Source: Escherichia phage vB_EcoM-ZQ3
Length of the DNA stretch: 64,000 nucleotides
Sequence record: MW630116.1
Reading direction: 5' to 3' (one strand)
Of the stretch, positions 37,962-53,576 are shown in pieces. A program made the translations under genes and the position numbers. Under the pieces are notes generated by a model. The model saw only the letters and a list, made by a program, of their open reading frames with translations, did not search any database and was not told the DNA's origin. Numbering within the stretch: position 1 is the stretch's first letter; each line of letters starts with the position of its first letter.

Positions 37962-38036
37962 GGCCCTGTAGCTCAATGGGAGAGCTGTCAGCTCATAACT
38001 GATAGGTAGCTGGATCGAAACCAGCCAGGGTCACCA
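37962..38036 (+). tRNA. tRNA, anticodon CAT (Met or Ile2/lysidine)
   Basis: hand-folded cloverleaf: acceptor GGCCCTG/CAGGGTC, D stem GCTC/GAGC, anticodon loop CTCATAA, T arm GCTGG-ATCGAAA-CCAGC, encoded CCA. Confidence 0.8.
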
Positions 38037-38042
38037 AACAAA

Positions 38043-38114
38043 TGGTGCATCGTATAAAGGTTATTACGGGGAGCTGTTAACTCCTTTATCTTGGTTCGAG
38101 TCCAAGTGCGCCAG
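38043..38114 (+). tRNA. tRNA-Asn (anticodon GTT)
   Basis: acceptor TGGTGCA/TGCGCCA, anticodon stem GGGAG/CTCCT loop CTGTTAA, T arm CTTGG-TTCGAGT-CCAAG; D stem only 3 bp; no encoded CCA. Confidence 0.65.
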
Positions 38115-38188: not shown

Positions 38189-38854
38189 ATGAGCATTTGT
38201 AAACATTGTAATATGGAATTTGATATTTCTAATAAACCTAAAGGATGGATGGCTAACCACACTAGATGGTGTAAATCCAACCCTAAATTGGAATTGTATA
38301 AAGAAAGTTCTAAATCAGCCATTGCAGCAATGAATAAAGCACGTATAGCTTCAGGTAATTTAAACCAGTATGTTGTATCTAAAAAGACTGGTGTCCCTGT
38401 AGTAATTTCGGAAGAGACTAGACAAAAATTGTCAGCCGCTTCATTAGGTAGAGAACACTCTGAGGAATCTAGAATAAAAATATCTAATGCTCGGAAAAAA
38501 TGGTTGAATGAAAACCCTGATAAACATCCTTGGAAGAAAAATACAAAATTTAAATCTGTGCCTTGTGAATTTTTGAAATCTAAATTAATAGAAAACGGAA
38601 TTTCATTTATTGAAGAATACCAACCGGTTAAAAACCGAGCGTATTGCACGGATATTGCTTTAATAGATAAAAAGATTATTATTGAAGTTAATGGAAACCA
38701 ACATTACTCCAATCCTAAGAAAAAGATTTTGGCCCCTTATTATAAAGAACGCCATGATATTATAAAATCATTAGGATGGGAAATATATGAACTTCATTAT
38801 GCTGAAGTTTATAAAGAAGATATTGTAAATAATTTAATTGCCTCTATAGTGTAA
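38189..38854 (+). CDS. putative homing endonuclease (Zn-finger / NUMOD3-like / C-terminal Vsr-DUF559-like nuclease domain)
   Basis: 222 aa from MSICKHC; CxxC...H..C N-terminus, NUMOD3-like ETRQKLSAASLGREHSEESRIKISNARKKW, C-terminal IIEVNGNQHY...D...GWEIYEL; located in tRNA cluster like T4 segB. Confidence 0.6.
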   Translation: MSICKHCNMEFDISNKPKGWMANHTRWCKSNPKLELYKESSKSAIAAMNKARIASGNLNQYVVSKKTGVPVVISEETRQKLSAASLGREHSEESRIKISNARKKWLNENPDKHPWKKNTKFKSVPCEFLKSKLIENGISFIEEYQPVKNRAYCTDIALIDKKIIIEVNGNQHYSNPKKKILAPYYKERHDIIKSLGWEIYELHYAEVYKEDIVNNLIASIV

Positions 38855-38915
38855 TGGATAGCATATAATCGTTCTAAGGTTAATGGTGAGAGTTCAAATC
38901 TTTCTAGAGGCACCA
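38840..38915 (+). tRNA. tRNA-Arg (anticodon TCT)
   Basis: acceptor GCCTCTA/TAGAGGC, anticodon stem TAATC/GGTTA loop GTTCTAA, T arm GAGAG-TTCAAAT-CTTTC, encoded CCA; overlaps last 15 nt of upstream ORF. Confidence 0.8.
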
Positions 38916-49118: not shown

Positions 49119-49138
49119 AAACAAACAAGGAAACAAAA

Positions 49139-49441
49139 ATGAAAACATATCAAGAATTTATTACTGAAGCGCGAGTGAGTGCAGGTAAATTAGAAGCCGC
49201 TATAAATAAAAAGGCCCATTCATTTCACGATTTGTCCGATAAAGACCGTAAGAAACTTGTAAGCCTTTATATTGACAAAGAGCGTATTCTCGCTCTTCCT
49301 GGCGCTAATGAAGGTAAACAGGCCAAGCCTTTGAATGCTGTTGAAAAGAAAATTGATAACTTTGCTTCTAAATTCGGTATGTCTATGGATGACCTTCAGC
49401 AAGCGGCTATCGAAGCAGCTAAAGTAATTAAAGGTAAATAA
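49139..49441 (+). CDS. internal protein (IPII/IPIII-like)
   Basis: 100 aa from MKTYQEFITE-ARVSAGKLEAA; canonical capsid-targeting sequence. Confidence 0.7.
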   Translation: MKTYQEFITEARVSAGKLEAAINKKAHSFHDLSDKDRKKLVSLYIDKERILALPGANEGKQAKPLNAVEKKIDNFASKFGMSMDDLQQAAIEAAKVIKGK

Positions 49442-49443
49442 CA

Positions 49444-49485
49444 GTTTACTTTCTCCTAGAATTGTGATAGTATAATCATAATTAC
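49444..49485 (+). promoter_or_regulatory. early promoter cassette followed by decayed 3-codon ORF
   Basis: GTTTAC-N21-TATAAT then RBS GAGAGG and ATG ACT CGA TGA (49499-49510). Confidence 0.4.
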
Positions 49486-49713
49486 TTGGAGAGGTAAAAT
49501 GACTCGATGAAAAAATTTTAATGAAGCCACACTGGTATAAGTATTAAGGCAAAAATATTTACATTCAAATAACATGGGAACAAGCTGGACCTCATGATTC
49601 TATGAGGGATTCCCGCCAACCTGTAATAAGGTCGAGCCCAAGTGCGGTAATGGGTAAATACAGAAATGGACAATTCATGTGCCATGGAATGGCCCAAACT
49701 TAGAGAGAACAAA

Positions 49714-50253
49714 ATGAAAACATTTTTAACTGGACCTTATCTATCCCTGATGAATGCTTTTACACACCATTCTGATGCTAGAGTAGAAGAAATTTGTAAG
49801 AACGGTTATGTCCCACCATTTGAAGACATACTCAAGCAGTACTGTACACTTCGTTTAGACGGTGGCAGACAATCAGGTAAATCCACTGCAGTAACTAATT
49901 TTGCTGCTAATTGGCTGCACGACGATGGAACAGTTATTGTTCTTTCTAATACTTCAGCTTATGCTAAAATTTCTGCTGGCAACATTAAAAAAGAATTTTC
50001 TCGTTATTCTAGCGATGATATTCGATTCCGTTTATTTACTGATTCTGTCCGTAGTTTTATTGGCAATGAAGGTTCTAAATTCCGTGGATTAACGCTTTCT
50101 CGTATTCTATACATAATTGACGAGCCTATTAAAGCTCCTGATATGGATAAGATTTACAATGTCCATATTAAATCAGTACAGCACTGCTGCAAAAGCAAAT
50201 ATTGCATAGGCGGTACTGCTCGTCCTCAATTTTTTGTGATTGGAATGCAATGA
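49714..50253 (+). CDS. P-loop NTPase-like protein
   Basis: 179 aa from MKTFLTGPY; Walker A GGRQSGKST. Confidence 0.55.
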   Translation: MKTFLTGPYLSLMNAFTHHSDARVEEICKNGYVPPFEDILKQYCTLRLDGGRQSGKSTAVTNFAANWLHDDGTVIVLSNTSAYAKISAGNIKKEFSRYSSDDIRFRLFTDSVRSFIGNEGSKFRGLTLSRILYIIDEPIKAPDMDKIYNVHIKSVQHCCKSKYCIGGTARPQFFVIGMQ

Positions 50254-50558
50254 TGACCACTATTGAAGTTTTTGAGTATTGTTATAACAGTCCAGTATGC
50301 AATAAAAGGGCTCTTGTAGAAAATTACGAGATCTACCATTTTAAACCTAAACGATATCGTTTGACTAAAGGTCCGTTCGCAGGTCAGCAGGTTCTTTGTA
50401 CTGCTCCTAATGCACGGTTGATGACTAGTATTCCGCATTTCAAAATGGAATTTATTGATGGGCCATTTAAGGGATTAATCACTCAAAGTTTAATGGCGTT
50501 TAATTCCGACCCATTTTTGATTAAAGAAAAATCTTGGATAAATTTATTTTCTAATTGA
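50250..50558 (+). CDS. hypothetical protein
   Basis: 102 aa; ATG overlaps upstream stop. Confidence 0.5.
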   Translation: MMTTIEVFEYCYNSPVCNKRALVENYEIYHFKPKRYRLTKGPFAGQQVLCTAPNARLMTSIPHFKMEFIDGPFKGLITQSLMAFNSDPFLIKEKSWINLFSN

Positions 50559-50564
50559 GGTTAT

Positions 50565-50927
50565 ATGAAAGCATATCAAATTCTTGAAGGCACACACAAA
50601 GGCACTATTTATTTTGAAGACGGTACTCAAGCCCGGATTATTGTCTCTAAGACTTTTAAAGAAGACGCTATTGTAGACCCGGAAATTTTCTACGGTTTGA
50701 ATGCCCGTGAAATTGAAATTGAACATCAACCTAAAGTTAAAATTGAAGGTGGTCAACACCTGAACGTTAATGTTCTGCGTCGTGAAACTCTGGAAGATGC
50801 AGTTAAGCATCCAGAAAAATATCCGCAGTTGACCATCCGTGTATCCGGTTATGCAGTTCGCTTTAACTCTCTGACTCCGGAACAGCAGCGCGACGTTATC
50901 GCTCGTACCTTTACTGAGAGTCTATAA
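50565..50927 (+). CDS. autonomous glycyl radical cofactor (GrcA/YfiD-like)
   Basis: 120 aa; C-terminal glycyl-radical motif [27 protein letters not shown]. Confidence 0.75.
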
Positions 50928-51151
50928 TGGCTAAATTGATTATAGAAGGGTCTGAAGATGTTTTAAAATGTTTTGCCGCCTGGTTTAGTTGCTCAGGCGA
51001 GCAATCATTCATTGAAGCATTTAGAATGGGTGATATTACTGGAAACTATCCGGCAACTGATATCACTGTACGTGGATATGGTATTAATGAGCCTATCCAA
51101 TTGGTCGAATATGACCTTGCCACTGATGAGGAAATTCCTTATGTCGATTGA
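50927..51151 (+). CDS. hypothetical protein
   Basis: 74 aa; ATGA-type overlap with upstream gene. Confidence 0.45.
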   Translation: MAKLIIEGSEDVLKCFAAWFSCSGEQSFIEAFRMGDITGNYPATDITVRGYGINEPIQLVEYDLATDEEIPYVD

Positions 51152-51407
51152 AGATATTAAAGGCTACAAGCCACATACCGACGATAAAATCGGTAAAGTG
51201 AACGCTATTAAAGATGCAGAAGTCCGTCTTGGATTGTTGTTTGATGCTCTGATTGAAGAAGCATATATCTTGAAAGAAAATGAAACAGAGCAACAAACCA
51301 AAGAAGATATGGATGCAGTACAGGCTCTTAAGTATGCTAAGCAACATCTAAAAGAAGCCAGCATGTGGGCCTGTCGTGCAGTATTTCGACCTGAGGAAAA
51401 ATACTAA
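51141..51407 (+). CDS. hypothetical protein
   Basis: 88 aa from [10 protein letters not shown]; longer alternative-frame ORF start rejected. Confidence 0.45.
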
Positions 51408-51706
51408 TGGCTCAAATCCTATCAGGCTTTGGAACTCATTATGAATCATCTAGACGCATAACTGAAAGCAATCCTTTTGGCCTTGTTCCGAAGCACAAAA
51501 AAATTCAAAGCCTTGATGACTTTGAGAACCGCCTATGGGCCCTCTTTAATGAGTACAAGGCATATCTGAAAGAAGACGCTGACGATTGTCTTGAAGAAGA
51601 TGAGATTGCGTATTACGAACAACGCCTTGAACAGCTCAAGAACTTCCACCAGGTTCGTGACGAAGTATCTAAAGCAGTTAAAAAGTTAATTCCTTTCAAA
51701 GAGTAG
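51407..51706 (+). CDS. hypothetical protein
   Basis: 99 aa, acidic helical. Confidence 0.5.
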
Positions 51707-51745
51707 TTTACTTCTCCTCTAGATGTGTTACTATAGACCTGTCAA
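51706..51745 (+). promoter_or_regulatory. early promoter cassette with anti-SD arm
   Basis: GTTTAC-N17-TACTAT; CTCCTCTAG (51714-51722) is perfectly complementary to CTAGAGGAG (51746-51754) containing the SD. Confidence 0.5.
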
Positions 51746-51762
51746 CTAGAGGAGAAATCAAA

Positions 51763-52221
51763 ATGACTATCAATTCAGACGTTTTTATCCGCCGCAATAA
51801 ACTCCGTCGAATCTTTGAAACGGAGTTCCGCAAAATAAATGCCAGTATAAAAGATGCTGCAAAGTCTCTTGGACTACCAGGCTTTCATATCAAGTATTCT
51901 CAACATCTCTTAGATCGTGCCATCCAGAGAGAAATAGATGAGAACTACGTTTTTGAATTATTTCGTAAAGTAAAAAATCATGTTAAAGAAGTTGCAGAAT
52001 TTTTATCAATGCCGGCACGTCCGGATGTTGATGAAGATTTTGTCGAAGGCGTCGAATATCGCCCAGGCCGTTTAGAAATAACTGATGGAAATCTTTGGTT
52101 AGGACTTACAGTTTGTCGCGAAAATCCAGCATTCAAAATGAAGACTCTTCAATGCAGAATGGCTATTATTAACAGTAAACGACTACCAGGAAAAGCTTCT
52201 AAAGCAGTGATTAAAATCTAG
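51763..52221 (+). CDS. regB: RegB-like site-specific endoribonuclease
   Basis: 152 aa; N-terminus MTINSDVFIRRNKLRR and C-terminus RLPGKASKAVIK as recalled for T4 RegB; position between denV and tk. Confidence 0.6.
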   Translation: MTINSDVFIRRNKLRRIFETEFRKINASIKDAAKSLGLPGFHIKYSQHLLDRAIQREIDENYVFELFRKVKNHVKEVAEFLSMPARPDVDEDFVEGVEYRPGRLEITDGNLWLGLTVCRENPAFKMKTLQCRMAIINSKRLPGKASKAVIKI

Positions 52222-52229
52222 AGGTAAAC

Positions 52230-52772
52230 ATGAGAAAAGCACTACTCGCTGGTCTATTTGCTCTTTCATTATCAGCACATAGCTCCGAGCATACTTTTAG
52301 TAATGTCCAACTCGATAACTTGAATTATGCTTATCAGTTTGGGGAACAGTTTTCTAAGGACGGAAAATTTAAAACGCATGAAAATATGCATAAGAAAGGA
52401 CTTGGATACATAATGGCCGCAATACTATGGCAGGAATCATCTGCTGGTATTAATCTTAAAGATAAGAAAGGTCACCATGCGTATGGAATGTTCCAAAATT
52501 ATCTACCAACAATGAGGGCAAGAATTAACCAGCTTGGTTATAATATGTCTGATGCCCAAATTAAGAAAATGCTATCTAAGCGGTCTAATTCAGCCAGATG
52601 GGCTTATATCGAATTTTCTTATTGGTTAAATATACATAACGGGGATATAAGAAAAGCTATATCCTCATATAATGCGGGATGGAAGACAAGTGCTGGAAGT
52701 AAATATGCTTCTGAAGTCCTAGAAAAGGCTAATTACCTTAAATCAAATAAACTACTGGAAATAAAAGAATGA
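52230..52772 (+). CDS. secreted lytic transglycosylase-like protein (SLT domain)
   Basis: 180 aa; signal peptide; SLT motifs ILWQESS, YGMFQ, SYNAGW. Confidence 0.6.
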   Translation: MRKALLAGLFALSLSAHSSEHTFSNVQLDNLNYAYQFGEQFSKDGKFKTHENMHKKGLGYIMAAILWQESSAGINLKDKKGHHAYGMFQNYLPTMRARINQLGYNMSDAQIKKMLSKRSNSARWAYIEFSYWLNIHNGDIRKAISSYNAGWKTSAGSKYASEVLEKANYLKSNKLLEIKE

Positions 52773-53116
52773 CCAAAATGTTGGCTTTAATAGTTGGCTT
52801 GGTTTCATTTAACGCTCTTGCTAATACTACATATACTGATGTAACGGAGTATACAAACAGAACAGCGTCTGATTATTGTGGTAAAAGTCAAGAGTGTAAA
52901 GTAGATTTTTCACAAAAATTGTTATATGCGTATAAAGACGGAGAAAAAGATGGGGCGTCTAGTAGGTTCAAGGCGTCTACCTTAATTAAAAGATACTATA
53001 AAAAATGGCAAATATTAGAATGCTCGGTGGCGGAACCTAAAGATAAGGCAGCATGCAATTCTATGGTGGACCGTCTAGTTGACTCTTATACTAGAGGACT
53101 TGCAGCAAGTGATTAA
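52769..53116 (+). CDS. secreted protein
   Basis: 115 aa; signal peptide MTKMLALIVGLVSFNALA; four Cys. Confidence 0.5.
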   Translation: MTKMLALIVGLVSFNALANTTYTDVTEYTNRTASDYCGKSQECKVDFSQKLLYAYKDGEKDGASSRFKASTLIKRYYKKWQILECSVAEPKDKAACNSMVDRLVDSYTRGLAASD

Positions 53117-53576
53117 AAACTATATCAAGGGCGATATTGTCGCCCTGTTTTCTAAAGGTAATAATATTGCTCATGGGTGTAATTGTTTTCATACAATGGG
53201 CGCCGGTGTGGCAGGACAATTAGCAAAGGCTTATCCAAAAATTCTAGAAGCCGATAAACTTCAAACCGAATTCGGAGACGAGTCTAAACTCGGGACTTAT
53301 TCGGTTTATGAAAAATATTTTAAGACCCACAAAGCTTATTGCTTTAATCTTTATACGCAGTTTGAGCCGGGACCTAATTTTGAGTACTCTGCTTTAATGA
53401 ATTGTATAATAGAATTAAATAAATTCGGAAAGAATAAGATAACAAAGCCTGTAATTTATATGCCAAGAATTGGTGCAGGTATCGGTGGTGGAAACTGGGA
53501 CGTCATCGAAGAGATTTTAGATACGTATTCCACTAAACTAGAAATTGTGATTGTTGATTGGGAACCATTATTATGA
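53109..53576 (+). CDS. macro domain protein (ADP-ribose binding/hydrolase fold)
   Basis: about 155 aa, GTG start inferred from RBS spacing; motifs IAHGCNC..MGAGVAGQL and PRIGAGIGGG match macro-domain signatures. Confidence 0.7.
   Translation: MIKNYIKGDIVALFSKGNNIAHGCNCFHTMGAGVAGQLAKAYPKILEADKLQTEFGDESKLGTYSVYEKYFKTHKAYCFNLYTQFEPGPNFEYSALMNCIIELNKFGKNKITKPVIYMPRIGAGIGGGNWDVIEEILDTYSTKLEIVIVDWEPLL

Follow-up and report, generated by a model that had tools for sequence, protein, structure and literature searches.

YfiD (GrcA) from Escherichia coli and Y06I from bacteriophage T4 are spare-part proteins of ∼14 kDa (Wagner et al. 2001, summarized in PMC8683613 and PMC13450708). Each protein acquires a glycyl radical from PFL-AE, the activase of pyruvate formate-lyase (PFL), and then forms a complex with O2-cleaved PFL in which activity is restored, and these two are the only spare parts that have been validated biochemically (PMC8683613, PMC13450708). 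In T4-like phages, vs.6 has been flagged as a conserved ORF with a Gly_radical match (Nolan et al. 2006, PMC1524935).

We analyzed vs.6 in a stretch of 64,000 nucleotides from Escherichia phage vB_EcoM-ZQ3 (MW630116.1), which is referred to below as the window. The original prediction for this ORF, made from the nucleotide sequence, was that it encodes a GrcA/YfiD-like spare domain that rescues O2-damaged PFL, and this agrees with what is established for the T4 ortholog, Y06I/Vs.6. The role of Vs.6 as a GrcA/PFL spare part was established in 2001 and now appears routinely in annotations, and it is not new biology. Below, we describe how the window locus compares with these systems, including a segment of vs.6 that nearly matches E. 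coli grcA at the DNA level.

The vs.6 reading frame and its surroundings

The vs.6 coding sequence occupies positions 50565..50927 on the plus strand and runs from an ATG to a TAA, encoding 120 amino acids plus the stop codon. The C-terminal peptide on which the original prediction rested corresponds to residues 90-116 of this 120-residue product, as confirmed by checking the translation. A Shine-Dalgarno sequence, GAGG, can be read on the same strand at positions 50557-50560, 4 nucleotides before the vs.6 ATG, and it overlaps the stop codon of vs.7 (TGA, 50556-50558). At the other end of the gene, the TAA stop codon shares bases with the ATG at which the following ORF begins (TAATG). vs.6 is tightly packed with its neighbors in an operon-like arrangement of the kind typically seen where phage genes are translated together.

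The number of σ70-like promoter sites around vs.6 (10) is what is expected by chance (9.8), with nothing specific among them, and a search for terminators flanking the gene found no convincing one. An Rfam scan of the whole window found only three tRNA genes, all on the plus strand and far upstream (37962-38033, 38043-38114, and 38840-38912), and no match near vs.6. The gene looks to be co-transcribed with the genes around it.

The order of genes in this region is vs.8-vs.7-vs.6-vs.5-vs.4-vs.3-regB-vs.1-vs, with denV further upstream, and the maps of mar005P1, NBG1, and T4 agree on this order. The flanking ORFs include those for DenV (Pyr_excise), RegB (REGB_T4, E = 3e-69), and an SLT-like Vs.1. 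The product of the window gene and T4 Vs.6 (NP_049730.1, UniProt Y06I_BPT4) are both 120 residues long and 94% identical in amino acid sequence, and the vs.6 DNA is 100% identical to that of Escherichia phage vB_EcoM_NBG1, a Mosigvirus. Based on both sequence and conserved gene order, this ORF can be assigned as vs.6 of a T4-like phage of the genus Mosigvirus and as the ortholog of T4 Vs.6/Y06I. Y06I is the UniProt name of a T4 ORF in the regB-denV interval, which we take to be vs.6; T4 records contain a single GrcA-like locus, which is consistent with this identity. The RefSeq name of NP_049730.1 is "autonomous glycyl radical cofactor GrcA."

In each of 721 phage records, matches cover at least 80% of the vs.6 DNA. 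By tblastn, homologs of Vs.6 were found in 1,588 phage records from T4-like, T5-like (e.g. BF23), and jumbo phages, and many of them carry the annotation GrcA or the looser "pyruvate formate-lyase." When the window and T4 copies of vs.6 were compared, 16 codon changes were synonymous and 7 were non-synonymous, so the gene is under purifying selection.

Several other features of this neighborhood were recorded. Positions 49127-49506, with an ORF of 100 amino acids at 49139..49441, are 90% identical to the region of T4 ipII (internal protein II), and this stretch stands out from the background of the neighborhood, where identity to T4 is about 76.5%. The ipII-like stretch lies downstream of denV in the window; in T4, ipII lies upstream of denV, and other ORFs occupy this site in the closest Mosigvirus relatives. 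Short pieces that match the T4 ipII-denV spacer recur in the window, in inverted orientation at 49428-49501 and again in the vs.3-regB interval at 51705-51768. This arrangement suggests cassette shuffling via short repeated regulatory elements. The vs.8 gene (49666-50253) encodes the motif GGRQSGKST and gives weak, sub-threshold matches of the P-loop type, including Terminase_6N (18.4 bits, cut-off 22) and AAA_14 (18 bits, cut-off 27). Vs.8 may be a small NTPase. The ORF at 53079-53576 corresponds by position to T4 tk.4, for which the annotation in relatives is a macro/A1pp-domain phosphatase.

Relationship of Vs.6 to GrcA and PflB

The glycyl-radical signature that the original prediction placed at the C terminus of Vs.6 was recovered by profile and sequence searches at levels far beyond chance. 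Residues 59-101 gave a match to Pfam Gly_radical (E = 2e-18, 67.3 bits compared with a gathering cut-off of 22.2 bits), and PHROG 1209 (phrog_1209) matches Vs.6 across its full length (E = 6e-63). Vs.6 also matches the E. coli GrcA/YfiD structure (PDB 6OWR) with E = 2e-42 and residues 696-759 of PflB with E = 3e-26 and about 85% identity. Vs.6 is a small stand-alone protein in the size range of ∼120-130 residues that consists essentially of a PFL-type glycyl-radical domain.

The glycine loop of this domain, RVSGYAV, comprises residues 92-98 (50838..50858, plus strand) and was aligned to the loops of both PflB and GrcA. The predicted radical glycine, Gly95 (codon 50847-50849, plus strand), lies near the C terminus, as expected for a PFL-type domain. 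Alignment to GrcA had been proposed as a check on the original prediction, and the motif falls perfectly on the known radical sites, PflB G734 and GrcA G102 (the latter number was obtained by counting along the E. coli sequence). In a multiple alignment of 14 sequences from phages and hosts, the RVSGYAV loop does not vary, and Gln5, Lys29, Asp34, and Arg48 of Vs.6 are likewise invariant across the phage and host proteins.

The two halves of the gene differ in how they relate to the host protein. Codons 1-60 (50565..50744, plus strand) encode a phage-specific, diverged N-terminal region that is weakly alignable to the N terminus of GrcA. Codons 61-120 and the stop codon (50745..50927, plus strand) encode the glycyl-radical domain, and residues 61-120, including the RVSGYAV loop, are 100% identical in amino acid sequence to E. 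coli GrcA. When compared with the NCBIfam equivalog model TIGR04365, Vs.6 aligns over residues 18-120 with a score of 159.1 bits (E = 6e-47), and E. coli GrcA scores 233.9 bits. The score of Vs.6 is 11 bits short of the equivalog cut-off of 170 bits because its N-terminal 60 residues have diverged. Judged by this model, Vs.6 would be classed as a diverged phage-type GrcA and not as a strict equivalog.

Two columns of the radical domain vary among the aligned sequences. At residues 77 and 81, the T-even phages of E. coli and E. coli GrcA read LEDAVK, and the Klebsiella phages and the Klebsiella and Salmonella GrcA proteins read LLDAVE. This matching to the host is not strict, as the E. coli phage GEC-3S carries LLDAVE.

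Comparison of Vs.6 with the phage anaerobic ribonucleotide reductase

A second part of the original prediction was that Vs.6 might repair the anaerobic ribonucleotide reductase (RNR) of the phage. Under this explanation, Vs.6 would be a spare part for phage NrdD that is activated by phage NrdG. There are grounds for considering it, as NrdD and NrdG are encoded by T4-like and T5-like phages (shown here for T4), the two big groups that carry vs.6. In addition, a role of vs.6 in nucleotide metabolism has been suggested from its Pfam match (Nolan et al. 2006, PMC1524935), and other glycyl-radical enzymes could conceivably have spare parts as well (Andorfer et al., PMC8683613).

The alignment to the C terminus of phage NrdD that had been suggested as a check on this proposal did not bear it out. 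When Vs.6 was compared by BLASTP with the C-terminal 249 residues of T4 NrdD, no significant similarity was found (E = 1.5), and the radical sites of the two proteins were not aligned. A class III RNR glycyl-radical domain is recognized by a Cys-rich segment, an R-x-C-G-Y-L-G loop, and similarity to NrdD, and none of these features was found in Vs.6. The loop of T4 NrdD, RRTCGYLG, is preceded by a CxxC...CxxC segment, whereas Vs.6 has the loop RVSGYAV and contains no cysteine among its 120 residues. Activases discriminate between these two types of loop, since PFL-AE is reported to activate an RVSGYAV peptide but not RVCGYLG (PMC13450708). The identity of the Vs.6 domain to host GrcA, and its close similarity to the PflB C terminus, also argue against a partnership with NrdD. 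Based on the lack of a significant match to the T4 NrdD C terminus, repair of NrdD was rejected as the primary function of Vs.6, and we consider it highly improbable. In every testable respect, the domain is PFL-type and not RNR-type.

A host-derived DNA segment in vs.6

The amino acid identity between Vs.6 and E. coli GrcA over residues 61-120 extends to the DNA. The 3' 183 nucleotides of vs.6 (50745-50927) are 96.7% identical to E. coli grcA, and the corresponding segment of T4 is 98.4% identical. When identity to E. coli grcA was scored in 30-nucleotide bins, it was 30-63% before codon 61 and 90-100% after it, giving an abrupt left boundary. The match to E. coli grcA starts at grcA nucleotide 200 in all 25 of the phage matches listed, and identity to E. 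coli grcA is 95% or more in 638 phage records.

Within these 183 nucleotides, the window differs from E. coli grcA at 6 positions, all of which are synonymous, and T4 differs from it at 3. Over the same segment, E. coli grcA differs from that of Citrobacter amalonaticus at 13 positions, from that of Klebsiella at 24, and from that of Salmonella at 29. Of 81 bacterial grcA loci that were compared (the E. coli reference and 80 from other species), none comes near the two Escherichia sequences in closeness to the vs.6 segment. These comparisons indicate that the 3' 183 nucleotides of vs.6 are a recent host-derived patch, and the patch itself appears well supported by the DNA comparison. On the E. 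coli chromosome, grcA adjoins ung, and its 3' segment has its nearest match in another Escherichia and its next nearest in Citrobacter, so the transfer was from host to phage.

Convergence of codon usage was considered as a source of this near-identity. It was ruled out by the E. coli phages GEC-3S and BF23, in which nearly the same residues are encoded by DNA that is only about 74-75% identical to the E. coli grcA segment.

The near-identity of the last 183 nucleotides to E. coli grcA could also be taken as a sign that vs.6 is a non-functional remnant of captured host grcA or pflB DNA, carried as accidental cargo. If this were the case, however, one would not expect the vs.6 frame to be intact and full length, with a Shine-Dalgarno sequence and translational coupling, nor all 6 of the positions at which the patch departs from E. 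coli grcA to be synonymous. The spread of homologs over T4-like, T5-like, and jumbo phages, with radical-domain residues that are invariant, also speaks against it. A functionless remnant is therefore an extremely remote prospect.

The patches of T4 and the window have a common boundary and share one derived synonymous change (AGC to AGT). This pattern favors one capture event that predates the split of Tequatrovirus and Mosigvirus, with numbers of differences that are too small for certainty. Independent captures in T4 and in the window phage are disfavored by the same two features, again on the basis of few differences. The window phage is a Mosigvirus, whereas T4 is a Tequatrovirus, and the two phages share only about 76.5% DNA identity in the genes around vs.6 (49576-53500). 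In contrast to these neighbors, vs.6 itself is about 93% identical in nucleotide sequence between the window and T4, with ∼90% identity in the 5' half and 96% in the 3' half. Either vs.6 may have moved between the T-even genera, or the constraint on it would have to be unusually strong.

We also searched phages for the grcA alleles of other hosts. No Salmonella-type 3' allele was found in phages (best identity 83.6%), and matches to a Klebsiella-type allele reached only 90-95%, in 15 records. Routine tracking of the host sequence outside the T-even phages of E. coli is not supported by these searches.

In one account of these data, vs.6 would be a chimera of an old, phage-specific N-terminal half and the 183-nucleotide grcA patch. 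The patch would have been copied from Escherichia grcA by recombination with the host chromosome after Escherichia split from Citrobacter and Salmonella, and it would keep the phage spare part identical to that of the host. The purpose of the spare part in vivo would be to let host PFL go on supplying formate, the reductant of the class III RNR of the phage, during micro-aerobic infection. Taken as a whole, this account of origin and purpose is tentative, and we think it the less probable outcome. No statement on either the chimeric origin or the formate purpose of vs.6 was found in the searchable literature, which does not include the T4 genome review (PMC150520). The patch is a modest evolutionary footnote and a neat small example of the flow of sequence from host to phage, and it might serve as a marker for tracing or dating exchanges of DNA by recombination between E. 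coli and the T-even phages.

Predicted function of Vs.6 in the infected cell

Based on the above comparisons, Vs.6 is very probably a stand-alone PFL-type glycyl-radical domain, the phage copy of GrcA/YfiD, that restores host PFL after its cleavage by O2. In the proposed mechanism, the host radical-SAM activase PflA (PFL-AE) would abstract a hydrogen from the RVSGYAV loop of Vs.6 at Gly95. The activated 14-kDa protein would then dock onto a PflB from which O2 had cut off the C-terminal radical domain at G734. There it would supply a new radical that could be passed to Cys419/Cys418, so that conversion of pyruvate to acetyl-CoA and formate would resume. This mechanism is strongly suggested by the 94% identity of Vs.6 to its T4 ortholog and by the 100% match of residues 61-120 to E. 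coli GrcA. Installation of the radical by PflA is reported for T4 Y06I and, given the identity between the two phage proteins, is predicted for the window Vs.6; rescue of O2-cleaved PFL by the window protein is likewise predicted from a docking and radical domain identical to that of GrcA.

It is common for phages to encode mimics of host enzymes. Vs.6 could instead be a decoy or inhibitor that soaks up host PFL-AE or occupies PFL, shutting down or redirecting fermentation. In favor of this, the N-terminal 60 residues of Vs.6 differ from those of host GrcA, and the YfiD N terminus modulates radical installation (PMC13450708). However, the T4 ortholog is reported to have restored PFL activity in vitro just as YfiD did (PMC8683613). 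Moreover, there is strict conservation of the radical glycine and of the entire docking domain, and a mere decoy would need neither. On this evidence, inhibition of the host system by Vs.6 is very unlikely, and repair of PFL remains the preferred function.

During micro-aerobic or anaerobic infection, a PFL spare part of this kind would keep the fermentative production of acetyl-CoA/ATP and formate by the host going after host gene expression is shut off, and this is the benefit that vs.6 may bring to the phage in vivo. In the literature searched, we found no in vivo phenotype ascribed to mutation of vs.6. Formate is the hydrogen donor of the formate-dependent class III RNR of E. coli (Mulliez et al. 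1995, cited in PMC13450708), and PFL-derived formate may be consumed by class III RNR (PMC13450708). Since phage NrdD belongs to this class, Vs.6 and NrdD may be linked indirectly, through formate. If it acts as proposed, Vs.6 is a textbook-level phage auxiliary metabolic gene product, a 14-kDa part that would repair a 170-kDa host enzyme.

Comparison of Vs.6 with described systems

The C-terminal domain of T4 NrdD shares with Vs.6 only the generic R-x-x-G-Y core of the loop, and NrdD uses an activase of its own, NrdG. The C-terminal domain of PflB (residues ∼696-759, with the radical at G734) has an RVSGYAV loop and flanking residues identical to those of Vs.6. Unlike PflB, however, Vs.6 is a stand-alone 14-kDa protein that lacks the 10-stranded barrel and the catalytic residues Cys418/Cys419, and therefore it would not be capable of catalysis alone.

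E. coli GrcA has the same radical domain as Vs.6, but its N-terminal region is 7 residues longer than that of the phage protein and is largely different in sequence. The genes also differ in their setting, as grcA lies beside ung on the chromosome and vs.6 lies in a phage operon. T4 Vs.6 occupies the same place as the window gene, within the denV-regB block and flanked by vs.7 and vs.5. The two phage proteins differ at 7 residues, 6 of which are within the N-terminal 60 residues, and apart from R73H, the radical domain of T4 Vs.6 is identical to that of the window protein.
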